A stretch of DNA of 64,000 nt from Thermoanaerobaculia bacterium (GCA_041574955.1 JBFGNS010000003.1:2640-66639); one strand, 5' to 3'. Shown: positions 15,724 to 27,863, counted from the stretch's first letter. The notes: generated by a model from the sequence alone, not told the origin. Numbers and translations: made by a program.

Positions 15724-15805
15724 AACCCTGGGGCCGGGAAAGCGGTAGAGTTTCTCGAGGGGGCGACCGCCGAGGGGCGCGCTCCGCAACCGATTGGAGG
15801 TCCCG

Positions 15806-17674
15806 ATGACGGCTCGCAAACCGGGCAGGTTCCTGCGCTTCGCCGGCGCGGTGTGGCGGGGTGTCGATCTCGCCAGCCGCCTGGTGCTGGCGCTTCTCGT
15901 GATAGCGGTGGTGGTCGCCCTCGCCATGCTGCTGCGCGGCCAGCCCCCCGAGGTGCCCGACGGCGCGGCGTTGGTGGTCGCACCGAGCGGCGTGCTGGTC
16001 GAGGAGCTCAGCGGCGACCCGACCGACCGGGCGCTCGACGAGCTCACCGGCCAGGCGGTCGCCGAGACCCTGTGGCGCGATCTCGACGATGCCATCCGCG
16101 CTGCCGCCGGCGACGACCGCATCCGGGTGCTGGTGCTGGACCTCGACGGCATGGTGGGCGGCGGTCTCGAGAAGCTGCAGGCGCTCGGCGCCGCCATCGA
16201 CGAGTTCAAGCAGAGCGAGAAGCCGGTGATCGCGAGCGCCGACTTCTACGGCCGCGACGCCTACTACCTGGCCTCGGCCGCCGACGAGATCTACCTGAAC
16301 CCCGAAGGGGCGGCGGTGCTCGACGGCTACGGCCGCTACCGCACCTACTACAAGGAGGGCATCGACCGCCTGGAGATCGACTGGAACGTCTTTCGCGTCG
16401 GCGAGTACAAGTCGGCGGTCGAGCCGTTCCTGCGTAACGACATGTCGCCGGAGGCGCGCCAGGCGAACCGAGAGTGGCTGGGTGATCTGTGGAGCTCTTG
16501 GACCGCCGACGTGTCGGCGGCGCGCGGCATGACGCTGGCCGAGCTGGGCGCCGTCATCGACGGCTTCGTGATGCGGGTTGCCGAGGCCGATGGCGACCTG
16601 GCGCAGGCGGCGCTCGCCGCGCGCCTGGTCGACCACCTGGCCAGCCGCGACCAGGTGCGGGACCGGCTGATCGAGCTGGTGGGCGAGGACGAGGAGACGC
16701 ATTCGTTCCACCAGGTCGGGCACCGTGCCTACCTGGCAGCGCTGGGCGACGATCGGCGGCGCCGGCCGGTGGAAGGCAACGGCGTGGCGGTGGTGATCGC
16801 CAAGGGCACCATCCTCGACGGCAGCCAGCCACCGGGAGCGATCGGCGGCGACTCGACCGCCGCCCTGGTGCGTGACGCCCGCCACGACGACGCCAACAAG
16901 GCGATCGTCCTGCGGGTCGACTCCGGCGGCGGCAGCGCTTTCGCCTCGGAGGTGATCCGCCGCGAGCTGGAGCTGGCGCGCGAGGCGGGCAAGAAGGTGG
17001 TGGTGTCGATGGGCACGGTGGCGGCCTCGGGCGGCTACTGGATCTCGACCGCCTCGGACGAGATCTGGGCCAGCCCGACCACCATCACAGGCTCGATCGG
17101 CATCTTCGGCATGCTGCCGACCTTCCAGAAGCCGATGCAGAAGTACCTCGGCTGGCGGGTGGACGGCGTCGGCACCAACTGGCTGGCGGGTGCGCTGAGG
17201 GTCGACCGGGCGCTCGATCCAGGGCTCGCCGAGATGATCCAGCTGATGATCGAGGACGGTTACCGGGACTTCCTGGAGCGGGTCGCCGAGGCGCGCGACT
17301 CGACGCCGGAGCAGATCGACCAGATCGCCCGCGGCCGCGTGTGGAGCGGCGCCAACGCCCTCGAGCTGGGGCTGGTGGACCACCTCGGCGGCCTCGACGA
17401 GGCCGTCGCTTCCGCCGCCCGGCTGGCCGAGCTGGGCGAGAACTACGCGGTGCGCTACGTCCAGCGCCAGCCCGGCTTCGGCGAACGGCTGCTGCGCAAC
17501 CTGCTGAGCCGTGCCGGCGGCCGTCTCGCTCCCGAGCTGCGCCCGGCGCGGCGCGGCCACGCCGCGCCGGTGCGCGACTCGCTGCTCGAGCTGCTGCGGC
17601 GCGAGGCCGAGACGCTGGCGGCGCTCAACGATCCCAGCGGGGTCTACGCCCTGTGCTTCTGCGCCGTCGAGTGA
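15806..17674 (+). CDS. sppA: Signal peptide peptidase SppA, 67K type
   Basis: Two S49 domains with the Ser-nucleophile context MGTVAASGGYWIS; N-terminal TM segment. ATG at 15806 lies 5 nt after GGAGG. Confidence 0.9.
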   Translation: MTARKPGRFLRFAGAVWRGVDLASRLVLALLVIAVVVALAMLLRGQPPEVPDGAALVVAPSGVLVEELSGDPTDRALDELTGQAVAETLWRDLDDAIRAAAGDDRIRVLVLDLDGMVGGGLEKLQALGAAIDEFKQSEKPVIASADFYGRDAYYLASAADEIYLNPEGAAVLDGYGRYRTYYKEGIDRLEIDWNVFRVGEYKSAVEPFLRNDMSPEARQANREWLGDLWSSWTADVSAARGMTLAELGAVIDGFVMRVAEADGDLAQAALAARLVDHLASRDQVRDRLIELVGEDEETHSFHQVGHRAYLAALGDDRRRRPVEGNGVAVVIAKGTILDGSQPPGAIGGDSTAALVRDARHDDANKAIVLRVDSGGGSAFASEVIRRELELAREAGKKVVVSMGTVAASGGYWISTASDEIWASPTTITGSIGIFGMLPTFQKPMQKYLGWRVDGVGTNWLAGALRVDRALDPGLAEMIQLMIEDGYRDFLERVAEARDSTPEQIDQIARGRVWSGANALELGLVDHLGGLDEAVASAARLAELGENYAVRYVQRQPGFGERLLRNLLSRAGGRLAPELRPARRGHAAPVRDSLLELLRREAETLAALNDPSGVYALCFCAVE

Positions 17675-17749
17675 AGGCGGGTGCGCCGGGCGGGCGGAAC
17701 TTCTGCCGCTCCCGGGCGTAGTAGCTGACAGCAAGAGGAGGATCGAGCC

Positions 17750-18616
17750 ATGCCCACCAAGCGACTGGGAACCGCCGTCCTGATCGTGATCGCCGCCGGA
17801 GCCGCAGCGCTGGTCGCGCTGCCGGCCTGGCTGGCCGCGCAACCCGCCGACGCCGGCGCGGCGACGCCGCCGGAGCCCGAGCTGACGGCGCGCGGCTTTC
17901 TCGGCGTCGCCGTGCACGACCTGACGCCCGAGCTGCGGCGCCACTTCGGCGTCGAGGGCGCCGGCGGCCTGCTGGTGGCGTCGGTGGCGGGCGGCAGCCC
18001 GGCGGCGGCGGCCGGCATCGAGGTCGGCGACGTGCTGGTGGCGGTGGCGGGCAGCGAGGTCGCCTCGTCGCGGCAGCTGCGCCGAGCGATCCGGCGGCTG
18101 GGCGGCGAGACGGTCACCGTCGAGCTGGTACGCGACGGTACGCCGCGGCGGCACGAGGTGACGCTGGGCGAGCGGCCGATGGCGGCGATCGGTGCGGCCG
18201 AAGTCTGGCCGCCGGACGGCACCGGTAGCTGGAACGCCGGGCAGTGGCAGGAGTGGGCGGAGCACTGGCAGGGGTGGGGTGAGCAGATGGCCGAGACCTG
18301 GGGCCGCTTCGGCGCCGAGATGGGCGAGGAGTGGGGTCGCCGGGGCGCCGAGATGGGCGAGCTCGGAGCCGAGATGGGCGGCCTGGGCGCCGACATCGGG
18401 CTCGAGGTGGCGCGCGCCATGGCCGAGATCGACTGGAGCGAGCTGGGGCTCGGTGTCGAGCGCTCGATGCGGTCGCTCGAAGAGGTCGACTGGGAGGAGA
18501 TCTCCCGCCAGATCGAGCGCAGCCTCGAGCAGGCCGGCAGAGAGATCGAGCGCAGCCTCGAGCAGATGGATCGCGAGCTCGATCGCGCCGAAGCCGAGCG
18601 CGACCCGAAAGACTGA
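17750..18616 (+). CDS. Secreted/membrane PDZ-domain protein with W/E/G/M-rich repetitive C-terminal tail
   Basis: Signal/TM segment; PDZ region (FLGVAVHDLTPELRRHFG...GLLVASVAGGSPAAAAGIEVGDVLVAVAG). The tail holds GAEMG repeats and a duplicated IERSLEQ unit. Shine-Dalgarno sequence GAGGAGGA upstream. Confidence 0.8.
   Translation: MPTKRLGTAVLIVIAAGAAALVALPAWLAAQPADAGAATPPEPELTARGFLGVAVHDLTPELRRHFGVEGAGGLLVASVAGGSPAAAAGIEVGDVLVAVAGSEVASSRQLRRAIRRLGGETVTVELVRDGTPRRHEVTLGERPMAAIGAAEVWPPDGTGSWNAGQWQEWAEHWQGWGEQMAETWGRFGAEMGEEWGRRGAEMGELGAEMGGLGADIGLEVARAMAEIDWSELGLGVERSMRSLEEVDWEEISRQIERSLEQAGREIERSLEQMDRELDRAEAERDPKD
18510..18565 (+). repeat. Perfect 23-bp direct repeat (period 33 bp) inside the PDZ-protein tail
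   Basis: AGATCGAGCGCAGCCTCGAGCAG occurs at 18510-18532 and again at 18543-18565, encoding the IERSLEQ duplication. Confidence 0.9.
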
Positions 18617-18642
18617 TCCGTCCGGCTCGGCCGGAGCGCTGC

Positions 18643-18672
18643 GGGCCGCTCTCGAAGCGGCCCGTTTCTTTC
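18643..18672 (+). terminator. Rho-independent terminator candidate after the PDZ gene
   Basis: Stem GGGCCGC, loop TCTCGAA, stem GCGGCCC, followed by GTTTCTTTC. A second perfect 8-bp hairpin, TCAGCGCC-GGTTTTTT-GGCGCTGA, lies at 18684-18707. Confidence 0.6.
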
Positions 18673-18942
18673 GCGGGCCGGTGTCAGCGCCGGTTTTTTG
18701 GCGCTGATGGCGCCGAGAACCGTTTCGATCCGGGTCGGGCACGGGCTCGCAGCGCCTTCCCCGTGACGCCGCGGCGAGCCCGGGCAGGCGTCCCAAGTCT
18801 TTCAGCTGCGGGGTTTTGACGCCTCGACCGCGAGACCGCGAACCGCCCCGGCGGGGCCGATCCATCGATCCGCGCCGATGGTACGGGCCTTGCCGATGAA
18901 TTTCCTGCCGGCGGGGCTGGACCGCCGCAGGGAGGGCCAGGG

Positions 18943-20670
18943 ATGAGAAGGCAAAGGAGCTTGTTTGGAGGAGTCGCGGGCGCGCCCGCGGGAGTGGCGC
19001 TGGCCGCCGCGCTGATGCTGCTGGGACCGATCCCGCCGCGGGCGGCGGACGCCGGGGCGACTACCCGCGTCATCGTCCAGGCGAGCGGCGCCGGCGAGGC
19101 GGCGGCGGCGGTTCGCGCCGCGGGCGGGCGGGTGACCCGCGAGCTGCCCATCGTGCGCGGCGCGGTCGCAGAGCTGACCGCCGGTCAGGCCGAGCGGCTG
19201 GCGACGCGCGCGGGCGTGCGCCTGGTAGCCGACCGCCGCGTCGAGCTGGCCGGCCGGGGCAACAAGAAAGGCGGCGGCTCGGCCGGCAGCACCCACTATC
19301 CGACCCTGATCGGCGCCGACCGCCTGCACGCCGAGGGCGTCACCGGCTACGGCGTCACCGTGGCGGTGGTGGACTCGGGCCTGTGGCCGGACTCGGACGT
19401 GCTGCTCGACAGCGGCGGCAGGTCGCGATTGCTGGCCAGCTACGACGTGCTGGGCGGCCAGACCGGTACGGTGCGCGACGGCTACGGCCACGGCACCCAC
19501 GTCAGCGGAGTGGCGGTGAGCCGCCGGCAGGGTCAGGGCAAGTTCGACGGCATCGCTCCCGACGCCGACCTGGTATCGGTGCGCGCCTTCGACGAGAGCG
19601 GCGTAGCCACCTACGCCGACGTGGTCACCGGACTGCAGTGGCTGCTGGACCACCAGAGCGTCTACGGCATCCGGGTGGTCAACCTGTCGTTCAGCGCGCC
19701 GCCGCGCTCCTACTACTGGGAGGATCCGATCAACCAGGCGGTGATGGAGCTGTGGCGAGCCGGCATGGTGGTGGTGGCCTCGGCCGGCAACGGCGGCCCG
19801 CAGCCGATGACCATCGGAGTGCCGGCCAACCTGCCCTACCTCGTGACCGTCGGTGCGATGACCGACAACTTCACCGCCGCCGACCCCGAGGACGACTACC
19901 TGGCTTCGTTCTCGGCCGCCGGGCCGACCTACGAGGGTTTCGTCAAGCCCGAGATCGTGGCGCCGGGCGGTCACGTGCGGGCGCTGATGGACCGCGGTGA
20001 CGCCATTGCCCGCGCGCACCCCGAGTTCCACGACGGCAGCTACTACTTCGAGATGTCGGGCACCTCGCAGGCGGCGGCGGTGGTGAGCGGGGTGGCGGCG
20101 CTGATGCTCCAGCAGTCGCCCCAGCTCACACCCGATGAGGTCAAGTACCGGCTGATGGCCTCGGCGAGCCCGGCGACCAACGCCGGCGGTACGCTGATCT
20201 ACTCGATCTTCCAGCAGGGGGCCGGCCTGGTGAACGCCTACGAGGCGGTGCGCGGCTCGTTCGGCGACGACTGCCTTCTGTCGTGCGATGCCGCCCTCCG
20301 CGCCAACCAGGGGCTCGACATCGACGCTGACCTCGCCGGCCTGCTGCACTTCTCCGGCCCGGCCGACGCCTACGACACCGTGGTCCGCAAGGGCGGCGAG
20401 GAGCGCACCGTCCGCACCTACTTCGTGACCGACGCCCTGGGTGAGCCGCTGGCCGGTCACGGCTTCGCCTGGTCCGGCGGCTATGCGCGCGATGCGGGCT
20501 TCCTGTGGTCGGACGGCTTCGTCTGGTCGGACGGCTTCTTGTGGGCCGACGGCTATCTGTGGTCGGACGGTTTCGTGTGGGCCGACGGGCTGCTGTGGGC
20601 CGACGGCTACCTGTGGTCCGACGGGCTGGCCGAGCCGATGTCGGTCAACGTCTGGGTACCCCAGCAGTAG
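18943..20670 (+). CDS. Secreted subtilisin-like serine protease (peptidase S8) with C-terminal WxDG hexapeptide repeats
   Basis: Catalytic triad contexts VAVVDSGL, GHGTHVSG and MSGTSQAAAVVSG; signal peptide present; repeat tail at the C-terminus. Confidence 0.9.
   Translation: MRRQRSLFGGVAGAPAGVALAAALMLLGPIPPRAADAGATTRVIVQASGAGEAAAAVRAAGGRVTRELPIVRGAVAELTAGQAERLATRAGVRLVADRRVELAGRGNKKGGGSAGSTHYPTLIGADRLHAEGVTGYGVTVAVVDSGLWPDSDVLLDSGGRSRLLASYDVLGGQTGTVRDGYGHGTHVSGVAVSRRQGQGKFDGIAPDADLVSVRAFDESGVATYADVVTGLQWLLDHQSVYGIRVVNLSFSAPPRSYYWEDPINQAVMELWRAGMVVVASAGNGGPQPMTIGVPANLPYLVTVGAMTDNFTAADPEDDYLASFSAAGPTYEGFVKPEIVAPGGHVRALMDRGDAIARAHPEFHDGSYYFEMSGTSQAAAVVSGVAALMLQQSPQLTPDEVKYRLMASASPATNAGGTLIYSIFQQGAGLVNAYEAVRGSFGDDCLLSCDAALRANQGLDIDADLAGLLHFSGPADAYDTVVRKGGEERTVRTYFVTDALGEPLAGHGFAWSGGYARDAGFLWSDGFVWSDGFLWADGYLWSDGFVWADGLLWADGYLWSDGLAEPMSVNVWVPQQ
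20505..20628 (+). repeat. Seven tandem 18-bp coding repeats (W[SA]DG[FYL][LV])
   Basis: TGGTCGGACGGCTTCGTC and its variants repeat in frame, giving WSDGFV WSDGFL WADGYL WSDGFV WADGLL WADGYL WSDGL. Confidence 0.9.
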
Positions 20671-20701: not shown

Positions 20702-22135
20702 TCAGCCGGCGGCGGCCAGCGCCGGCGTCTGCAGCGCGCGCTGGCGGTAGAGCAGCTCGAACAGGTTGCCCTCGTGGGGCTGGTCCCAGCTCACCCGACT
20801 GGTGGGCAGCGGTCCCAGGTTGAGCCGCTCGATGGCGGGCGACACCAGCGCCTGCTGCTGCAGCTCGCGGTCGTTGCTCAGCAGCGTCGCCACCAGCGTC
20901 GGCTCGAGGGCGGCCAGCAGCCGCTCGCGGGGTACCTCCACCACGCCGACGAACGGCAGCAGGAGCTCGGTCTGGGCCAGCGGGTGGCCCGGGTCCTCGC
21001 ACCAGACGACGGTGGGCAGCACGAACCAGCAGCCGCCCGCCTGCGCTACCCGGCCGCCCGAGCGGTGGCGGGCGGTGAGGTCCTCGGCGCCGGGTTGGCC
21101 GAGCCGGGCGTCGATGTACTCCGACAGCCGCTCGGCGGCGGCGCGGCTGGGCATCGCGGCCAGCGCCGCCTCGGGGTGGTCGAGCGGGCGCGCCTCGATG
21201 GCGGCCAGCCGTTCGGCCAAGCCGTCGGCCAGCTCCCGGCCGTGTGCGGTGGTGCGGACGCCCGAGGCGTTGACGCACGAGCGGCCGCCGTTGTCGGCCA
21301 CCGAGGCGGCGATCAGCTCGAGGTGGTCGCGCCAGCTGGCGGCCTGGTCGGGCCCCAGCAGCACCTTGCTCCAGCCGGGGCCGTGGATCTGGACGCGCGA
21401 GTCGGCCCGCCACGGCTCGACGGTGGCGCGGTCGCCGAACAGCAGCGAGCGGCCGCACTCCAGCAGCAGCTGGGCGGCGCCGTCGTAGCCGGCCGGGTAG
21501 AAGCCGAGCGCCGCCGGCGGCAGGCCGGCAGCGAGGAGAGCCTGGCACACCCGCCACGGGGTCCACGGCTCCTGGCTGCCGGGCTTGAGCGCCAGCGCCA
21601 CCTTGAAGGCGACCGCCGGCAGCCACAGCGAGTGGACGCCGGGCGAGTTGCTCGGCAGCACCGCGCCGAGAACCGAGGTCTCGCGCCGGTAGGAGACGGT
21701 GCGCCCCTCCTGCACGCCGTAGCCGCGGTCGAGGATGGCGCCGTCCAGGCCGCGGGTCAGCCCCGCCATCACGGTCGGCATCTCGGCCATCACGAAGCGG
21801 ATCTTCTCCATGTTGCGCCGCCCCATGGCCTCGGGCATGCCGGTGGTGGCGGCCAGCTGGCGCAGGTAGTCGGACGGGCCCTGGACGGCGTCGCCGAGCG
21901 GCAGCTGGCCGCCGACGAACAGCTCCGCCGCCCGCCGGCAGATCTCGACCAGCTCGTCGGTGGCCAGCGCGTCGAGCGGCTCGAGCTCGGCCATGCGGCG
22001 CACGTCGCGCGCGACGAGCCCCGGGTGAGCGCGGCTCACCTCCGCCACCGGTTCGCCGGTGCGCAGGTCGGCCAGCCGCGCCGTGGTCAGGCTGCGGTAC
22101 GGCCGTCCGAGGCGGAGCAGCGGGATGTGGAGCAT
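20702..22135 (-). CDS. Aldehyde-dehydrogenase-superfamily protein (acyl-CoA reductase/LuxC-like candidate)
   Basis: Shows LPSNSPGV, ALKPGSQEP and the Cys context NGGRSCVNASGV. No signal peptide. The ATG at 22135 shares 1 nt with the upstream TGA. Confidence 0.75.
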   Translation of the reverse strand: MLHIPLLRLGRPYRSLTTARLADLRTGEPVAEVSRAHPGLVARDVRRMAELEPLDALATDELVEICRRAAELFVGGQLPLGDAVQGPSDYLRQLAATTGMPEAMGRRNMEKIRFVMAEMPTVMAGLTRGLDGAILDRGYGVQEGRTVSYRRETSVLGAVLPSNSPGVHSLWLPAVAFKVALALKPGSQEPWTPWRVCQALLAAGLPPAALGFYPAGYDGAAQLLLECGRSLLFGDRATVEPWRADSRVQIHGPGWSKVLLGPDQAASWRDHLELIAASVADNGGRSCVNASGVRTTAHGRELADGLAERLAAIEARPLDHPEAALAAMPSRAAAERLSEYIDARLGQPGAEDLTARHRSGGRVAQAGGCWFVLPTVVWCEDPGHPLAQTELLLPFVGVVEVPRERLLAALEPTLVATLLSNDRELQQQALVSPAIERLNLGPLPTSRVSWDQPHEGNLFELLYRQRALQTPALAAAG

Positions 22136-23229
22136 CAGTAGACCCCGACCGTGACGGTCTCGCCGAGCGGCGCGAACAGCCGCAGGTTGGACACGCCGTC
22201 CCACGGGTAGGGCGCGATCGGCTCGGCGCGCTCGCCCTCGTCCCGCTCGAGGAAGCGTGGCATGAAGAACTCGCGGGTCAGCGTGGTGAGCATCACCCGC
22301 CCGGTGGCGCCGTAGTCGACGGTGGTCTCCGGGTCGTCGGGGTCGACCAGCTCGAAGATGGCGCGCGGGCTGGGCGGGTAGTAGGTGATGGTGTAGTCGG
22401 GCCGCTCGGGGTCGAACGGCCGCGAGCACGCCAGGCCCATCAGGGTGTTGCCGTAGGTGGGCACGAAGTCGATGCCGGGCACCAGCTCCTCGCGCGCGAA
22501 GCGGTGGAACTGGGCGTTCATCTCGGTGCCGCCGCAGAAGATGCCGCGGATGCCCACCTTCGCCAGGTCGAGCTTGGCGCTCAGCGCCTCGAGCAGCTTC
22601 GGGGTGGTGAACAGGCAGCGGATGTTGTCGTGGCCGCGCAGGATCTTGAGCCCCTGGTCGATGACGTGCTCCTTGTAGGCCTCGGCCTCCTGCAGCCGGC
22701 CGGCCTTGAGCAGCTTCGACACCCAGCGTGGGTCGAGATCGACGTGGAAGGCGATGCCGCCGCGGTACTGCGCCAGGTGCTCGATCGCCAGCCGCAGCCG
22801 CCGCGGACCGGTCGGGCCGAGCATCAGCCAGTCGCCGCCGCGCGGGAAGCCGTCGTCGGACAGGGTGCCGGAGAACATCTCGTAGTCGACGCGGAAGTCG
22901 TCGACGTTGATCCGCGTCTTGGGCAGGCCGGTCGAACCGCCGGTCTCGAAAACCGTGATCGGCTTGTCGAGCAGCGGCTGCGGCACCCACCTGCGCACCG
23001 GGCCGCCGCGCAGCCACTCGTCCTCGAAGTGACCCAGGTGTTTGAGGTCGGCGTAGCCGTGGATCTTGTCGCGCGGGTCGAACGGCAGGCGGGCGGCGTA
23101 GTCGAGCCAGAACCGGCAGCCGGTCTCGAGAGCGAAGTGCCAGGCCACCATCTCGCGCACCCAGGCGTCGAGACGCTGGCGGGCTTCCGCCACCTGTTCG
23201 GCGAGCGCCTGGCCGGTGGCCAGGGTCAT
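22135..23229 (-). CDS. Adenylate-forming enzyme, PaaK / F390-synthetase / LuxE-like
   Basis: Has the P-loop variant FETGGSTGLPK; also shows CGGTEMN and PTYGNT. About 364 aa with no signal peptide. ATGA overlap with the upstream gene. Confidence 0.7.
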   Translation of the reverse strand: MTLATGQALAEQVAEARQRLDAWVREMVAWHFALETGCRFWLDYAARLPFDPRDKIHGYADLKHLGHFEDEWLRGGPVRRWVPQPLLDKPITVFETGGSTGLPKTRINVDDFRVDYEMFSGTLSDDGFPRGGDWLMLGPTGPRRLRLAIEHLAQYRGGIAFHVDLDPRWVSKLLKAGRLQEAEAYKEHVIDQGLKILRGHDNIRCLFTTPKLLEALSAKLDLAKVGIRGIFCGGTEMNAQFHRFAREELVPGIDFVPTYGNTLMGLACSRPFDPERPDYTITYYPPSPRAIFELVDPDDPETTVDYGATGRVMLTTLTREFFMPRFLERDEGERAEPIAPYPWDGVSNLRLFAPLGETVTVGVY

Positions 23230-24689
23230 TCGGCGCCCGCCGGCGCCTTCGCCCCCTGGGCGAAGGCGAACAGCTTGTTGCGGCTGGCGATGTAGAGCAC
23301 GCTGTCGCGCGCTACCGGGGTGGTGTAGACGGCCGCTCCCAGGTTCATCTCGTCGAGCACCACCGGCTGGCCGTCCTTGCCCTTGCCGGCGGCGAGCACC
23401 ACCACGTCGCCGTCCTCGTCGCCCAGGTAGACCTTGCCGTCGGCGACGAACGCAGAGCCCCACACTGCGGCGAAGGTGTCGTAGGTCCAGTGGTGCTGGC
23501 CGGTGCGGGCGTCCAGGCAGTAGAGGAAGCCCGACAGGTCGGCGATGTAGAGCAGGCCGTCGGCGATCGCCGCGGTCGACATGGTGCGGTGGAACTCCTC
23601 GCCGCCCCGGTGCCAGGCGACGTGGGTGTCGGTGACGTCGCCCGAGCCGGCGGCGTCGATCGCCCACAGGTTGCCGACACCCTCACCGTGCTCGGGATCC
23701 TGGCCGACGCCGATGTAGACCCGGTCCTCCCACACCACCGGCGTGCCGATGATGTTGTTGCGGGTGCCCGAGCCGCCCAGCTCCCACTGCGAGTCCTTGG
23801 GGTTGGCGTCGAACTTCCACAGCAGCGAGCCGTCGTCGGGCTTGAGCGAGTAGACCCAGCCGTCGCCGCCCGGGAAGATCACCTGCGGCCGGCCCTTGAC
23901 CACCGCGTAGGCGGGGTTGGACCACTGGCCGTGCAGGATGTTGCGGCCCGGCAGCGCGCTCTCCCACACCAGCTTGCCGCTGCGCTTGTCGACCGCGATG
24001 AAGCTCGGCGCCAGCGTCGACGGGATGTTGACGTGGCCCTCGTCGACGCCGTTGCCGGTGACGGTGAACACCAGGTTGCCGACCACCAGCGGGTTGCCGG
24101 CGGCCAGGTTGTGGGGGAACACGTCGAGCTCCTCGATCATGTCCAGGCTCCACACCAGGTCGGCGTCGCGCTGTCCGCTGCGGGCCTCGCTGGTGATCGG
24201 GCCGTCGTTCTCGCCGTCGCGGAAGCCCTCGGTGTCGGCGCACACCAGCTCGGCCCGGTTGGAGACGTAGTACAGCCGGTCGCCCTCGACGTACGGCCCC
24301 GAGCAGATGCCCTGCAGCGGCCAGTCGTGGACCCGGCCGGCAGGCAGCTTGTCGTGCACCGCCTGCCACAGGAACTCGCCGCTGTCGGCGTCGAACGCCA
24401 TCAAGACGCCCTTGTCGCCGGTCACCGCGGGGTCGCGCGGGCTCTCGTTGTTGGTGCCGACGTAGATCCGGCTGCCCGCCACCACCGGCCCGCCGTAGCT
24501 CTGCGAGCCGAGGGGCTGGACCCACTTGACGTTCTCGCCGGTCTTGACGTTCCAGCTCGCCGGCAGCCCGGTGGCGCCGGAGACCATGTTGCGGGACGGC
24601 GTGTTGCCAAACATGCCGGTGACGGTGGCGGCCAGCGCCGCGCCCGCCGCCAGCGCGACGAACGAGGCTGCGATCAGGAGTCTCTTCAT
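23226..24689 (-). CDS. Secreted PQQ-like (BamB-type) beta-propeller repeat protein
   Basis: Signal peptide MKRLLIAASFVALAAGAALA. Repeated blade motifs (GRIYVGT, GEFLWQ, GKLVWE, GSLLWKF, GLLYIAD, GQHHWTY). ATGA overlap with the upstream gene. Confidence 0.85.
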   Translation of the reverse strand: MKRLLIAASFVALAAGAALAATVTGMFGNTPSRNMVSGATGLPASWNVKTGENVKWVQPLGSQSYGGPVVAGSRIYVGTNNESPRDPAVTGDKGVLMAFDADSGEFLWQAVHDKLPAGRVHDWPLQGICSGPYVEGDRLYYVSNRAELVCADTEGFRDGENDGPITSEARSGQRDADLVWSLDMIEELDVFPHNLAAGNPLVVGNLVFTVTGNGVDEGHVNIPSTLAPSFIAVDKRSGKLVWESALPGRNILHGQWSNPAYAVVKGRPQVIFPGGDGWVYSLKPDDGSLLWKFDANPKDSQWELGGSGTRNNIIGTPVVWEDRVYIGVGQDPEHGEGVGNLWAIDAAGSGDVTDTHVAWHRGGEEFHRTMSTAAIADGLLYIADLSGFLYCLDARTGQHHWTYDTFAAVWGSAFVADGKVYLGDEDGDVVVLAAGKGKDGQPVVLDEMNLGAAVYTTPVARDSVLYIASRNKLFAFAQGAKAPAGAE

Positions 24690-26899
24690 GGTTGGTTCCC
24701 GTAGACGTGGAGGTTGTCGAAGTGGATGTCGGTCGGGGAGTAGCCCGACAGGCCGGGCGCCCCCTGGTGGATCGGCAGCAGGTCCTCGACGACGATCGAC
24801 CAATCGGCCGGCTCTTCGCCGTCCTTTGGCCACACCTTGCCGCGGATCACGGCGCGCTCGCCGGCGGCGTCCACCCGCAGCTTCATGCGGTACCAGACGT
24901 CCGGCTGCCAGGGAAAGTCGATCTCGCGCATCATGCGCAGCTCCGACTGCCAGGAACGCACCTGCAGCTGCTGGTGGTTGCCCATCAGCTCCATCGTGTA
25001 GCCGGAGTTGATCAGCCCCATGTCGGGCATGCGGCGGCCGGTCCGGCTGCCCCTGAGATCGGCCTCGATGGTGTAGCCGGCGAGCTCGGGGTGGCCGATG
25101 AAGGTGATGTGGCGGTCGATCTTGCGCGCCGCCGGCCCCTTGACCAGCACCTTGTTGCCGTCGATCTCGTCGACCTTCCAGGCCATCAGGTAGGCCATGA
25201 AGTAGCCTGGCACCGCGCCGGCGGCAGTGGTCTCGAAGTCCTCGGCGAGCGGCAGCGGCTGCAGCACCCGCACCCGGCCGGCGGCGGAGAGCTCACCGGC
25301 GGTGGCCACCACCAGCCCCTGGCGCGAGCCGGCGGCGGCGGTGAGGACGCCGTCGGCCGACACCATGCCGGCGAGGCCGTCGAGCGACCAGTCGGCGGTC
25401 AGCGGCCCGAGCGGGCGTCCCTTGGCGTCGAACGCCTGCACCGTGAAGCCGGTGCTCTCGCCCGGCCGCAGGATGACCTCCGCCGGCACCACCCGGATGC
25501 GTGCCGGCGGCGTGCCGGCCGGCGGCGGGCTCTCGGGCGCCGCCGGCTGGGGGTCGGAGGAGACCCCGAACGGCTTGCTCTTGTCCCCCAGGCAGTACAG
25601 CCCCTCCTCGGTGGCGAAGTAGATACGGCCGTAGGCGATCGCCGGCGAGCTGTAGATCTCGGCGAACCGGTTCTCGCCCTCGAGCCGGATCTCCTCGAGG
25701 TCCAGCAGGCGGCCCGACTCGGCACCGGGCTCGACGATCAGGAACCGCCCGTTGACCTCGGTGGCGTAGAGCTTGCCGTCGGCCACCACCGGTGAGCCCT
25801 TGCCGACTCGCCCCAGGTTGAGCTCCCAGGCGGAGTCGCCGGTGGCGGCGTCGAGAGCGTGCAGGTTGGCCGAGTTGTCGATCACGTACAGCCGCCCGCC
25901 GGCGAGCGCCGGCGACGCGAACCCCGCCGACACCGGCGAGCGCCACAACTCGTGGCTGGCGGTGACGTCACCCGAGCCGGTGCCGTCGATCGCCACCACC
26001 CGCCCCATCGTGCCTTCGTCGACGTTCTCCTCCGAGTGGCTGGCGTAGACCTTGGTGCCGTCCACCACCACCGAGGTGTTGATGCCGCGCTGCGACAGCC
26101 GGAAGCCCCACACCGGCTCGCCGGTGCTCGCCTCGACGGCGTAGATGCCGCCGCCGCCGTTGCCCGCCACCACCAGCCGCCGGCCGTCGACCCACATCAG
26201 GTTGGGGGTCGATTGGGTGTTCTTGTCGGCCTGCGTGGGCGCCGGCGTCGACACCCACAGCAGCGCGCCGGTGAGCTTGTCGAAGGCGCGGTAGCGGTGC
26301 AGCGGGGTGCGCTCGCCGCCCCAGCTGGTGTTGGAGAAGGTGACGATCAGCCGCTCGCCGTCGACCAGCGGGGTCTGGGTGCGCCCGCCGTAGCCCTCCA
26401 TGAAGCCGAACTCGTCGACGAACGAGCGCGACCAGACGATGCGGCCGTCGGCCGAGTCGAAGCAGAAGAACAGCCCGCCGACGCCCTGGACGTAGACGTA
26501 GCCCGTCTCGGGGTCGGCTACCGGGCTCGGCCAGCCGACCCGGTTCCAGGGCACCGACGTGTGGTAGACGTTCCACCGCCGCTCCCACAGCTTGGCTCCG
26601 GTCTCGGCGTCGAAGCAGGCCATCATCTCCTGGCGCTGGCTGTCCTCGCCGACGCGGCCGTTGGCACAAACCCGGCCGCGGGTCACCACCGGCGTCGAGC
26701 GGCCGACGAAGTCGACCCGCCAGATCAGGTTCTCGCCGGCCTGCGACCAGCCCGCGATGAGGCCGGTCTCGGGCGACGTGCCGTTGCGCTGCGGGCCGCG
26801 CCAGTGGGCCCATTCTCCGGCCGAGGCCGGCGTGGCGACGAGCGCCGTGGTGAGCAGTACGGCGGTGGCCGCCGCGGCGGCCAGGAGCTTGCGGTGCAT
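24686..26899 (-). CDS. Secreted PQQ-like beta-propeller + Ig-like + LamG/DUF1080-like C-terminal domain protein
   Basis: Signal peptide. Propeller blades (WRGPQRNG, AKLWER, GRIVWS, GALLWV, GEPVWGF, GDSAWEL). An Ig-like segment (IRVVPAEVILRPGESTGFTVQAFD). The C-terminal jelly-roll-like part shows WKVDEIDGNKVLV...YRMKLRV...GKVWPKD. ATG at 26899 lies 5 nt after GGAGG. Confidence 0.8.
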   Translation of the reverse strand: MHRKLLAAAAATAVLLTTALVATPASAGEWAHWRGPQRNGTSPETGLIAGWSQAGENLIWRVDFVGRSTPVVTRGRVCANGRVGEDSQRQEMMACFDAETGAKLWERRWNVYHTSVPWNRVGWPSPVADPETGYVYVQGVGGLFFCFDSADGRIVWSRSFVDEFGFMEGYGGRTQTPLVDGERLIVTFSNTSWGGERTPLHRYRAFDKLTGALLWVSTPAPTQADKNTQSTPNLMWVDGRRLVVAGNGGGGIYAVEASTGEPVWGFRLSQRGINTSVVVDGTKVYASHSEENVDEGTMGRVVAIDGTGSGDVTASHELWRSPVSAGFASPALAGGRLYVIDNSANLHALDAATGDSAWELNLGRVGKGSPVVADGKLYATEVNGRFLIVEPGAESGRLLDLEEIRLEGENRFAEIYSSPAIAYGRIYFATEEGLYCLGDKSKPFGVSSDPQPAAPESPPPAGTPPARIRVVPAEVILRPGESTGFTVQAFDAKGRPLGPLTADWSLDGLAGMVSADGVLTAAAGSRQGLVVATAGELSAAGRVRVLQPLPLAEDFETTAAGAVPGYFMAYLMAWKVDEIDGNKVLVKGPAARKIDRHITFIGHPELAGYTIEADLRGSRTGRRMPDMGLINSGYTMELMGNHQQLQVRSWQSELRMMREIDFPWQPDVWYRMKLRVDAAGERAVIRGKVWPKDGEEPADWSIVVEDLLPIHQGAPGLSGYSPTDIHFDNLHVYGNQP

Positions 26900-26918
26900 T
26901 CCCACCTCCCCGATCGCT

Positions 26919-27314
26919 TCAGGTGACCCGGATGCGCCGCGGCTGCTGCTCTGGGGACTTCGGCAGGGTCAGCGTCAGCACGCCGCCGGCGATGCGGGCC
27001 GTGATGCCATCACGATCGATCTTGCTGGACAAGGCGAACGTCCGGCTGAAGTGCCCGACGTTGTACTCGGTGTAGACGGGGCTGAGCCCCTCGTAGGCTG
27101 AGAAGTCGATGCCGCCTTCCACCCTGAGCTGGTCGCGCTCGAGCGAGACCGAGAGCCGGCCCCTGTCGACGCCCGGCAGGTCCATCACCACCACCAGCGC
27201 CTCCTCGGTCTCGTAGATGTCGGTGTCGGGAGAGTAGGTCTTGCCGGGCGTGGTCTGCTCCCGTCCCGGGCTGCTCTCGCGCTTCTCGTGGACTTTCATC
27301 GGCTCGTCGGTCAT
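26919..27314 (-). CDS. Hsp20/alpha-crystallin family small heat-shock protein
   Basis: Shows DIYETEEALVVVMDLPGVD...F.RTFALSSKIDRDGITARIAGGVLTLTLPK. Confidence 0.9.
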   Translation of the reverse strand: MTDEPMKVHEKRESSPGREQTTPGKTYSPDTDIYETEEALVVVMDLPGVDRGRLSVSLERDQLRVEGGIDFSAYEGLSPVYTEYNVGHFSRTFALSSKIDRDGITARIAGGVLTLTLPKSPEQQPRRIRVT

Positions 27315-27326
27315 GGCGGCGCTCGC

Positions 27327-27749
27327 TCAGAAGACCTCGATGGTGCGCGGCTTGTCGGCCTCGGCGCGTGGCAGGGTCAGCCACAGGATGCCGTCCTTGT
27401 GCTCGGCGCGCGCCGCGTCCAGATCGATGGCGAACGGTACGGTCAGGGTGCGGTCGAAGGCGCCGCTCTGGCGCTCGCGACGGTGCACGCTGGTGCCCTC
27501 GGGGGCGGCGGTGGAACGGCTGCCCGCGATGCGCACGTGGTTGCGGTGGATCTGGACGTCGAGCGTCTGCTTGTCGATGCCGGGCAGCTCGGCCACCAGC
27601 AGGATGTCGCCGCCGCGCTGGAAGACGTTGACCGGCGGGTGGGCGCCGCGGCCGGCGGTGGAGCCGCCCAGCCCGCGCGACGACATCGACTCCTCGACCG
27701 CCTGCTGCAGGCGCTGGAGGGCGGCGAACGGATCCAGGAAGCTGGTCAT
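27327..27749 (-). CDS. Hsp20/alpha-crystallin family small heat-shock protein
   Basis: Shows VNVFQRGGDILLVAELPGID...GAFDRTLTVPFAIDLDAARAEHKDGILWLTLPR. Start taken at MTSFLDPF. Confidence 0.9.
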   Translation of the reverse strand: MTSFLDPFAALQRLQQAVEESMSSRGLGGSTAGRGAHPPVNVFQRGGDILLVAELPGIDKQTLDVQIHRNHVRIAGSRSTAAPEGTSVHRRERQSGAFDRTLTVPFAIDLDAARAEHKDGILWLTLPRAEADKPRTIEVF

Positions 27750-27863
27750 GGTGCGTCTTCTGCCATGCTGGCTGGGGCGTGACCGGCGGTTTCGCCCGAC
27801 AGAGCTTACCGCCCCGGCCACTGCGAGTTTATCCCTCCGCGGGCGGCGCGGGGAGGCGCGAGC

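Follow-up and report, generated by a model that had tools for sequence, protein, structure and literature searches.

Gene organization of the locus

We analysed a 64,000-nt window of DNA from a Thermoanaerobaculia bacterium (GCA_041574955.1 JBFGNS010000003.1:2640-66639), within which four consecutive minus-strand genes, P1 to P4, overlap one another at their stop and start codons (Table 1). A prior reading made from the sequence only, hereafter the sequence-only reading, had described this arrangement with its ATGA, ATGA and TGATG overlaps, and it was confirmed both by the open reading frames and by reading the junctions themselves, which in gene order are CCATGAAG (ATGA), GAATGACC (ATGA) and TACTGATGCTC (TGATG). 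Signal peptides had been proposed for the first two products and not for the last two, in agreement with our inspection of the N-termini by eye: P1 (residues 1-27, MHRKLLAAAAATAVLLTTALVATPASA, followed by GEW) and P2 (residues 1-20, MKRLLIAASFVALAAGAALA, followed by ATV) each open with a basic residue and then a hydrophobic stretch that leads to an A-x-A site, and a signal-peptide-like start was looked for by eye in P3 and P4 and not found.

Table 1. Genes, overlaps and sequence motifs of the quartet, in window positions
Feature	Position	Strand	Length	Description
P1 (P0001), gene 1	24686..26899	minus	737 aa	predicted exported propeller with two C-terminal beta domains
P2 (P0002), gene 2	23226..24689	minus	487 aa	predicted exported propeller
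P3 (P0003), gene 3	22135..23229	minus	364 aa	predicted EhpF/GriC-type adenylating enzyme
P4 (P0004), gene 4	20702..22135	minus	477 aa	predicted EhpG/GriD-type ALDH-fold reductase
P1 stop / P2 start	24686..24689	minus		ATGA overlap
P2 stop / P3 start	23226..23229	minus		ATGA overlap
P3 stop / P4 start	22133..22137	minus		TGATG overlap
P-loop (A3) of P3	22918-22950			FETGGSTGLPK, residues 94-104
Asn163 of P4	21647-21649	minus		oxyanion Asn
His251 of P4	21383-21385	minus		at the ALDH general-base Glu position
Cys287 of P4	21275-21277	minus		catalytic Cys
PHEG motif of P4	20768-20779	minus		C-terminus

P3 and P4 resemble the EhpF/EhpG pair

P3 matched the EhpF structures (PDB 3L2K/3HGU) over residues 21-364 of 364 (E 2.8e-43), and BLASTP aligned it with Pantoea EhpF at 33% identity (E 3e-48), the alignment running through to the C-terminal residue of each. 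It comprises the ANL N-terminal domain alone: in Pfam it matched AMP-binding in part and AMP-binding_C not at all, and the chain stops at the end of the N-domain. Across 10 orthologues from several phyla, the P-loop residues F94, E95, T96, G97, G98, T100, G101, P103 and K104 are invariant. Orthologues in other phyla share 70-82% identity with P3, and Streptomyces homologues at 33-35% identity bear the NCBI name 'arylcarboxylate reductase'. The sequence-only reading had assigned the ligase to the PaaK/LuxE fold, which did not hold up; a PaaK-type phenylacetate-CoA ligase was rejected because P3 gave no PaaK-type Pfam or NCBIfam match and lacks the PaaK-type C-terminal domain, AMP-binding_C_2.

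P4 scored 41.5 bits against PF00171 (cut-off 23) and 119 bits against EhpG, with 27% identity, whereas the best solved ALDH reached just 45 bits. When P4 was aligned onto ALDH 4o5h, Cys287 fell at Cys302, Asn163 at Asn169 and His251 at Glu268, and each of these three P4 residues is at least 95% conserved among 71 orthologues. The P4 partners of Pantoea, Burkholderia and Streptomyces carry Q, L or R at the general-base position, Glu was found there in none of the pair's relatives compared, and P4 and these partners have in common the Glu-less motif x-G-P-G-(R/W)-S-K.

By homology, P3 and P4 most likely form a carboxylic-acid reductase of the EhpF/EhpG, or GriC/GriD, type, split over two proteins and dependent on ATP and NAD(P)H, with an aromatic acid as the probable substrate. 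All four compared partners sit in chorismate-type aromatic-acid clusters, and start/stop coupling of the pair recurs in Pantoea, in Burkholderia and on one Streptomyces plasmid. Orthologous pairs occur in Acidobacteriota, Poribacteria, Latescibacterota, Gemmatimonadota, Calditrichia/KSB1 and Myxococcota; since they are 60-82% identical across these phyla and only 33% and 27% identical to EhpF and EhpG, the group forms, on sequence identity, its own clade within the EhpF/EhpG family. The EhpF and EhpG matches uphold the logic originally put forward, in which an adenylating enzyme and an ALDH-fold reductase convert a carboxylate to an aldehyde. The accompanying caveat, that the two proteins might fall into clades of established but unrelated function, is half right: the family is an established one, but its function fits that logic.

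The exported propellers P1 and P2

P1 combines an eight-bladed PQQ_2-type propeller (residues ~30-440; PF13360, 126.8 bits) with a small beta domain (~462-547) and a beta sandwich (~548-737), and was modelled by AlphaFold with a mean pLDDT of 88 over the whole protein. Foldseek ranked BamB first (16-17% identity) and tetrathionate hydrolase next. The C-terminal 300 residues had been read as Ig-like and LamG/DUF1080-like domains. The AlphaFold model, with a small beta domain (~467-545) and a larger beta sandwich (~551-737), makes an Ig-like domain plus a beta sandwich plausible, but the DUF1080/LamG assignment found no sequence support: this part of P1 had no Pfam match at E <= 10, PF06439/DUF1080 included, apart from a chance match to DUF3472, a profile search of the PDB returned no match, and comparison with this genome's true PF06439 (DUF1080) protein gave an hhalign probability of 0.3%.

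P2 is likewise an eight-bladed propeller (PF13360, 94.4 bits; AlphaFold mean pLDDT 81), with the invariant motifs TNNE (79-82), DGENDGP (158-164), GVDEGH (214-219), GQDPEHGEG (329-337) and GDEDGD (423-428). Among 20 orthologues, residues at least 95% conserved make up 55% of the D-A and B-C loops as opposed to 27% of the strands and other loops. In the predicted model, from which the assignment of loops to top or bottom is taken and in which the conserved loop 214-223 has a pLDDT below 50, the top face of P2 is strongly conserved and acidic/His in character.

Neither propeller resembles a PQQ-dependent dehydrogenase at the family level, identity to these enzymes being 13-14%, and we rejected this candidate on scores of 36 and 40 bits for TIGR03075 (cut-off 480) and 23 and 14 bits for TIGR03074 (cut-off 833); matches to PF01011 were confined to the blade level. 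The sequence-only reading had also suggested looking for pqq genes elsewhere in the genome. In this 89% complete assembly PqqC had no match, and the best PqqE-like match stopped at 58 bits (cut-off 381), which is weak evidence of absence given the incompleteness of the genome and a PqqC control that matched in no control genome. Nothing supports P1 and P2 as PQQ enzymes. An eight-bladed fold of this kind can also be a cofactor-less enzyme, as tetrathionate hydrolase (PDB 6L8A) shows.

The quartet is the front module of a larger system

The quartet is conserved as a neighbourhood, a check that the sequence-only reading had asked for. Of the related loci, which come from several phyla, 70 extend far enough upstream to be informative, and 62 of these keep the order P1-P2-P3. 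In 66 of 72 loci P4 is found downstream, within a few kb of the adenylating gene, and in 35 it directly adjoins that gene. At least 25 of 64 loci continue the order through P4, the alcohol dehydrogenase, a propeller and the radical SAM gene, and an independent gene call with precomputed Pfam annotation yielded an identical gene order.

In other genomes the quartet is followed by genes for an Fe-alcohol dehydrogenase, a propeller, a HemN-like radical SAM protein, another propeller, a TonB receptor, a flavin halogenase, a symporter, a GT4 protein and a MacB-type exporter. Here this second half lies on a separate contig, C13, such that the two modules are non-adjacent; C13 encodes the Fe-alcohol dehydrogenase, HemN-like radical SAM protein, flavin halogenase, GT4 glycosyltransferase and two more exported propellers, together with the transport genes for a TonB receptor of siderophore type (TIGR01783, 260 bits, above cut-off), a DUF3311/SSS importer and a MacB-type ABC exporter. 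In a genome of the same family, G136, P3 and the halogenase are 8.6 kb apart on one strand, which is the spacing expected of a contiguous cluster. The quartet is the front module of a modular system of approximately 16 genes found in several, little-studied phyla. Poribacterial versions of the locus additionally carry a sulfatase and a lyase-like gene, and relatives carry a 4HBT-type thioesterase.

The modules also travel together when their genes are dispersed. In counts that ignore kinship, and that overstate the evidence because kin are not independent, P3 was present in 79 and P2 in 87 of 301 sampled genomes of the phylum, neither was present in 214, all 79 P3-positive genomes had P2 even though the two genes are adjacent in only ~25, and the halogenase was present in 68 of the 301, 64 of these being P3-positive. 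This co-occurrence of dispersed modules makes the system a good case for guilt by association beyond operons.

A proposed role and its alternatives

We consider it reasonably likely that the four genes, as one translationally coupled unit, are a coupled acid-reductase/propeller front module of the multi-phylum system, in which the pair makes an aldehyde and the propellers handle the compound. P3 would adenylate a carboxylic acid, probably an aromatic one, and the acyl group would move to Cys287 of P4 as a thioester, which a hydride would then reduce to the aldehyde; His251, which takes the position of the general-base Glu of ALDHs, would stop hydrolysis of the thioester back to the acid. The Fe-alcohol dehydrogenase would turn the aldehyde into an alcohol, and P1 and P2 would bind the pathway compound, or act on it, in the periplasm, a task for which P2 probably uses its conserved acidic/His top face, possibly with a metal. 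Our guess at the product is an aromatic alcohol or aldehyde, tailored by halogenation, methylation or glycosylation and handled in the cell envelope. We count against this role the modest identity to EhpF and EhpG, the separation of the two modules in this genome, the presence of both importers and an exporter in the system, which bears on making as opposed to uptake, and the finding that the propellers' closest folds are those of BamB, a scaffold protein. The EhpF/EhpG function is itself reportedly a proposal, made by Bera et al. 2010 from structure and a knock-out.

The system could instead serve uptake or salvage, with the propellers capturing or releasing an environmental aromatic or other carboxylic acid in the periplasm, the TonB receptor and SSS protein importing it, and P3/P4 with the Fe-alcohol dehydrogenase reducing it for detoxification or use. 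The siderophore-type TonB receptor and the DUF3311/SSS pair are part of the conserved cluster, an aromatic-ring-building gene was seen in none of the loci examined, and the Poribacterial sulfatase and lyase-like gene also suit this scenario, which we nevertheless regard as unlikely. Spending ATP and two NAD(P)H on each acid reduced would be unusual in catabolism, the halogenase, radical SAM, GT4 and MacB-type exporter resemble tailoring and export, and the 4HBT-type thioesterase of relatives would provide a free acid from within the cell.

A long shot within the synthetic role is that the cytoplasmic enzymes (acid reductase, alcohol dehydrogenase, halogenase and radical SAM enzyme) make a small aromatic that is exported and serves the four exported propellers either as a bound cofactor or as a diffusible redox or metal shuttle retaken by the TonB receptor and symporter. 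Such an arrangement would be an analogue of the PQQ/quinoprotein system in phyla without PQQ synthesis, or the bacterial equivalent of the redox cycle that fungi run on chlorinated anisyl alcohol.

It is improbable that P3 is a ligase that makes amides or esters, the activity proposed for enzymes like BagE, with P4 oxidising aldehydes as an ordinary aldehyde dehydrogenase. BagE and YtkN are reported as the best MIBiG matches of the AMP-binding genes in sponge halogenase/AMP clusters (bioRxiv 10.64898/2026.08.03.742642), but the general-base Glu of aldehyde oxidation is replaced in P4 by the conserved His, and strict start/stop coupling with an EhpG-like partner is a hallmark of reductase pairs. 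A LuxE/LuxC-type fatty-acid reductase yielding fatty aldehydes or alcohols, a literal version of the analogy drawn in the sequence-only reading, is very improbable. It would follow the same logic of adenylation, Cys thioester and hydride, and an alcohol dehydrogenase comes next in relatives; however, PF04443 and PF05893 went unmatched in P3 and P4 at E <= 0.1, the closest characterised relatives use aromatic acids, and LuxD-like acyl-transferase, wax and lipid genes are absent from the cluster.

That the propellers are BamB-like structural proteins functionally untied to the reductase, with the overlaps an accident of gene packing, is scarcely credible: BamB is the best structural match of P1 and P2 (TM-score ~0.8 over the BamB chain), but TIGR03300, the BamB equivalog with a cut-off of 285 bits, scored only 47 and 71, neither protein has a lipobox Cys, both signal peptides ending in A-x-A, P2 accompanies P3 in every P3-positive genome even when the genes are distant, gene order is kept across phyla, and P2 has a conserved polar face. 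We rejected BamB as the identity of P1 and P2, which are alike in fold alone; the propellers travel with the reductase, which favours the pairing that the sequence-only reading had pointed out.

The EhpF/EhpG-GriC/GriD acid reductases are known from a handful of antibiotic pathways. The proposed acid-reductase/propeller module would extend their reach beyond these, to about a quarter of the phylum's sampled genomes and alongside exported propellers. Solving the system would give a function to a large family of orphan 'PQQ-like' propellers and bring to light a halogenated compound of uncultured phyla, new as a natural product or as a cofactor, and P3/P4, as a compact two-protein acid reductase, may be of use in biocatalysis.

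Comparison with known systems

In their eight-bladed fold and blade motif, P1 and P2 are like BamB, tetrathionate hydrolase and PQQ-dependent alcohol dehydrogenases, but they differ from them in identity (13-19%), in family scores far below the cut-offs and, for P1, in the two extra beta domains. The chemistry proposed for P3/P4, in which an acid, ATP and NAD(P)H give an aldehyde via an acyl-adenylate and a thioester, is that of LuxE/LuxC and of the single-chain CARs (A-PCP-R). Unlike the former, P3/P4 match neither Pfam model, and unlike the latter they have no carrier-protein or SDR-type reductase domain, the reductase being ALDH-fold.

A 2026 preprint lists sponge-microbiome 'Halo_AMP' clusters, which pair a flavin halogenase with an AMP-binding gene, as uncharacterised (bioRxiv 10.64898/2026.08.03.742642). 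These occur in Acidobacteriota, Latescibacterota and Poribacteria, often with PQQ-like domains, TonB transporters, rSAM and GT genes, and very probably include the present system. Our account differs from the preprint, which reads the AMP-binding gene as one for a ligase, leaves the EhpF/EhpG reductase pair unrecognised, and assigns neither a product nor a role for the propellers.

GriC/GriD of grixazone biosynthesis in Streptomyces griseus convert 3-amino-4-hydroxybenzoate to its aldehyde, as described in PMC10179220 citing Suzuki et al. 2007. The likeness, as drawn from that description, is of architecture: an AMP-binding protein works with a reductase of ALDH type on an aryl acid in its free form, but the gene context of P3/P4 is unrelated. 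EhpF/EhpG are the proposed phenazine-dicarboxylate reductase pair of the D-alanylgriseoluteic acid cluster in Pantoea agglomerans (PDB 3L2K, 3HGU). P3 aligns end to end with EhpF, both without the ANL C-terminal domain, P4 and EhpG keep the catalytic Cys and Asn and lack Glu268, and in both systems the genes stand in the same order and are start/stop coupled. In contrast to the Pantoea cluster, phenazine genes are absent here, and the partners to which P3/P4 are joined instead are exported propellers together with a TonB receptor, a halogenase and a radical SAM enzyme.

A coupled propeller-reductase quartet is conserved as a neighborhood

The quartet comprises four minus-strand genes encoding two exported propellers (P1 and P2), an adenylating enzyme (P3) and its ALDH-fold partner (P4). 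Its junctions read exactly as the ATGA, ATGA and TGATG overlaps described in the sequence-only reading, and inspection by eye likewise bears out the assignment of signal peptides, of the Sec type with an A-x-A end, to P1 and P2 and of none to P3 and P4. We found neither a promoter-like site nor a minus-strand terminator-like site within the unit. Two Hsp20 genes lie directly upstream of P1 on the same strand. Just 19 nt separate the P1 start from the nearer Hsp20 stop (26919), and a search between them revealed no promoter-like site, so the quartet may be co-transcribed with heat-shock genes in this genome. In one relative (L094), the gene before P1 is divergent and is set off from it by a gap of 248 bp.

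Features of the quartet on contig C3 and of the associated module on contig C13
Feature	Position	Strand	Description
P1	window 24686-26899	-	737 aa (ORF listing and translation)
P2	window 23226-24689	-	487 aa (ORF listing and translation)
DGENDGP insert of P2	window 24198-24218		residues 158-164, C2-D2 loop
P3	window 22135-23229	-	364 aa (ORF listing and translation)
P4	window 20702-22135	-	477 aa (ORF listing and translation)
Two Hsp20 genes	window 26900-27821	-	directly upstream of P1
Second Fe-ADH fragment	C3:1-375	-	N-terminal 125 residues, 2.3 kb before window start
Intervening genes looked at	C3:700-1447; window 15794-20670	+	between P4 and the Fe-ADH fragment
C13 module		-	Fe-ADH, propeller, radical SAM, propeller, TonB receptor, halogenase, DUF3311-like ORF, SSS, GT4, ABC ATPase, FtsX permease
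MbtH-like ORF	C13:26488-26736	+	small, adjoins ABC/FtsX exporter genes
Signal-peptide protein	C13:33260-33781	-	173 aa

P3 has thousands of relatives, the best 120 being 72-82% identical, and a scan of one genome per species yielded more than 557 P3 loci, the best 80 of which come from Thermoanaerobaculia, other Acidobacteriota, Poribacteria, Latescibacterota, Gemmatimonadota, Calditrichia/KSB1 and one Polyangiaceae MAG. Using tblastn and ORF clustering, we observed P1-P2 immediately 5' of P3 in 62 of the 70 loci with enough DNA; four of the eight exceptions (L002, L022, L055 and L058) retain the pair, though shifted, inverted or frameshifted, and none was found within the locus DNA searched in the remaining four (L005, L013, L020 and L054). 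P4 lies downstream of P3 in 66 of 72 loci, immediately adjacent in 35, and in Poribacteria the two are separated by an insert of 1-2.5 kb that carries a Vgb-lyase-like gene. The quartet is thus conserved as a neighborhood in other genomes, a point on which the earlier interpretation depended. Typical identities across related loci are 72% for P3, 65% for P2, 55% for P4 and 50% for P1, and an independent public annotation, which carries precomputed Pfam assignments, gives the series PQQ_2, PQQ_2, AMP-binding, Aldedh, Fe-ADH, an unassigned gene and Radical_SAM/HemN_C.

The Poribacteria loci (L028-L080) have an organization of their own, in which P1 is divided into two ORFs, the insert encodes a Vgb-lyase-like propeller (PF24684, below cut-off), sometimes with a 277-aa unknown protein, and the place of the Fe-ADH module after P4 is taken by a gene named by eye as sulfatase-like and one for a 360-aa protein that has no assignment.

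P3 and P4 are homologous to EhpF and EhpG

In Pfam, P3 has only a sub-threshold AMP-binding match and P4 an ALDH match above threshold. Neither the LuxE (PF04443) nor the LuxC (PF05893) model matched at E <= 0.1, an NCBIfam search of both proteins gave nothing approaching any cut-off, and PaaK membership of P3 found no HMM support in Pfam or NCBIfam. Among solved structures, P3 matched EhpF (3L2K, 3HGU) over residues 21-364 with an E value of 2.8e-43. Against ehp cluster reference sequences taken from a Pantoea plasmid, P3 aligns with EhpF over its whole length at 33% identity (E 3e-48), and P4 is 27% identical to EhpG at 119 bits, compared to just 45 bits for the best canonical ALDH. The acid-activation and reduction logic proposed in the sequence-only reading is therefore upheld through EhpF/EhpG homology, while its placement of the pair in the LuxE/PaaK and LuxC families is not.

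Alignment of P4 to the ALDH 4o5h with HMMER places Asn163 at Asn169, Cys287 at Cys302 and His251 at the general-base Glu268, and each of the three P4 residues is at least 95% conserved among 71 orthologues. In Pantoea, Burkholderia and two Streptomyces plasmids, the partner proteins of EhpF-like enzymes carry Q, L or R at the general-base position, never Glu, and have in common a G-P-G-(R/W)-S-K motif and a C-terminal P-H-(D/E)-G. All four partner genes sit amid chorismate-type aromatic-acid genes, and start/stop coupling of the pair recurs in Pantoea, Burkholderia and one Streptomyces case.

EhpF is reportedly an ANL enzyme without the C-terminal domain, and together with EhpG it was reportedly proposed to reduce phenazine-1,6-dicarboxylate to the aldehyde. 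PMC3175449, citing Bera et al. 2010, places EhpF in the D-alanylgriseoluteic acid phenazine pathway as its adenylating enzyme. The Streptomyces homologues carry the name 'arylcarboxylate reductase', which is the activity of GriC/GriD, described in PMC10179220 as converting 3-amino-4-hydroxybenzoate to its aldehyde through an acyl-AMP. From this homology and naming, the catalytic residues of P4 and the context of the known pairs, we infer both the chemistry and the substrate class: P3 would form an acyl-adenylate from a probably aromatic acid, the acyl group would move onto Cys287 of P4, and the resulting thioester would be reduced by NAD(P)H, with the absence of Glu in P4 preventing hydrolysis.

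Propeller P2 carries a strongly conserved face

With alignments of 20 orthologues as input, AlphaFold gave confident models in which both propellers are eight-bladed (P1, pLDDT 88 and pTM 0.88; P2, pLDDT 81 and pTM 0.85). The top Foldseek neighbor of both is BamB, with a TM score of ~0.8 over the BamB chain and 16-19% identity, followed by tetrathionate hydrolase and PQQ alcohol dehydrogenases at 13-17%. A quinoprotein identity, which the sequence-only reading had put up for checking, is not supported: PQQ-enzyme HMM scores were far under their cut-offs, and a search of the genome (89% complete) found neither pqqC nor pqqE. BamB-type proteins, which the sequence-only reading had named as one of the findings that would count against it, are likewise not what P1 and P2 appear to be, given BamB HMM scores under cut-off and the lack of a lipobox. 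A search for the claimed LamG/DUF1080-like domain in the P1 C-terminus drew no Pfam hit, no PDB profile hit and an hhalign probability of 0.3%.

We mapped conserved P2 residues through secondary structure, assigning loops from the strands of the model. Conservation of at least 95% was seen for 95 of 173 residues (55%) in the D-A and B-C loops, compared to 22 of 83 (27%) in the other loops and 47 of 174 (27%) in the strands. By propeller topology, the D-A and B-C loops make up one face. Asp, Glu, His and Asn abound in the conserved motifs of P2 (TNNE, GVDEGH, GQDPEHGEG and GDEDGD), and in the model this face suggests a site for ligand or metal binding or for catalysis more than it does a scaffold; model confidence is low for one conserved loop (214-223). 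An invariant acidic insert, DGENDGP, resembles a calcium-binding loop and lies on the face opposite the main conserved surface. P1 exhibits no comparable enrichment (30%, 33% and 26%).

The quartet belongs to a wider, modular gene system

Downstream of P4, at least 25 of 64 loci carry an Fe-alcohol dehydrogenase, another exported propeller (the third), a radical SAM protein resembling HemN/HutW and a fourth propeller, and many of these loci continue with a siderophore-type TonB receptor. In five genomes examined further, a tryptophan-halogenase-family flavoenzyme comes next, then a sodium:solute symporter (absent from one of the five), a glycosyltransferase of the GT4 type, an ABC ATPase and a large permease of the FtsX/MacB type; three of the five also have a 4HBT thioesterase. 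Because HutW, HemN, HemW and HemZ scores all fell under their cut-offs, no specific function, heme-related or otherwise, can be assigned to the radical SAM protein. PQQ import by the TonB receptor was rejected, since it scored 32 bits with the PqqU model, whose cut-off is 1200.

The same 301 sampled genomes of the phylum were searched for P3, P2 (E <= 1e-80) and the halogenase (E <= 1e-100), with counts that take in related, non-independent genomes. P3 orthologues occur in 79 genomes and P2 in 87, including all 79 P3-positive ones; eight genomes, three of them less than 85% complete, carry P2 without P3, and 214 have neither. Halogenase orthologues occur in 68 genomes, 64 of which are P3-positive. 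The sample includes complete, cluster-bearing genomes such as G191, G078 and G093. When places were compared by hand, P2 and P3 lay within 3.5 kb in just ~25 genomes and 7-65 kb apart on one contig in ~17, with the remainder far apart or on separate contigs. Presence is patchy by family (e.g. 12 of 15 genomes in one, 0 of 20 in another), a pattern that argues for the propellers and reductase being a functional unit made of modules.

The system lies on two contigs in this genome

On C3, a convergent S8 protease follows the quartet in place of the dehydrogenase, and the remaining genes lie on C13, where the TonB receptor matches TIGR01783 (260 bits), the halogenase matches PF04820 (97 bits) with its WxWxIP motif present as AWFWFIP, and a DUF3311-like small protein (judged by eye) just precedes the symporter. 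Upstream of the Fe-ADH start, C13 continues for 88 bp before it ends. A second Fe-ADH fragment, with 86% DNA identity to the C13 copy, runs off the start of C3, 23 kb downstream of P4 and on the same strand, and the genes between them are on the plus strand where looked at. A genome of the same family (G136) has P3 and the halogenase on one strand with 8.6 kb between them, as would be the case in a contiguous cluster. Given the second fragment, the C13 end and this contiguous relative, it seems that either insertion or inversion of a block split the cluster in this lineage, or a repeat interrupted the assembly.

The MbtH-like ORF on C13 is on the strand opposite the exporter genes, and no NRPS was seen nearby. 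Between the C13 symporter and GT4 gene lie ~2 kb of unclear coding and the 173-aa signal-peptide protein, with no counterpart in four relatives.

Relation to known systems

Our best guess is that the system yields a tailored aromatic alcohol or aldehyde that is made or recycled between cytoplasm and periplasm. A bolder reading, in which this compound serves the propellers as a cofactor or shuttle, strikes us as improbable. A 2026 preprint on sponge microbiomes describes 'Halo_AMP' clusters, comprising a halogenase and an AMP-binding gene, from Acidobacteriota, Latescibacterota and Poribacteria, in which PQQ-like domains, TonB transporters, rSAM and GT genes are frequent and to which no product is assigned (bioRxiv 10.64898/2026.08.03.742642). 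To this we add that the Glu-to-His hallmark runs through the family, that dispersed modules co-occur at the genome level, that P2 has a conserved face, that the DUF1080 test was negative and that the arrangement in this genome is split. The P3/P4 pair belongs to a known kind of enzyme, within which it forms a new and very widespread clade, in a new gene context.
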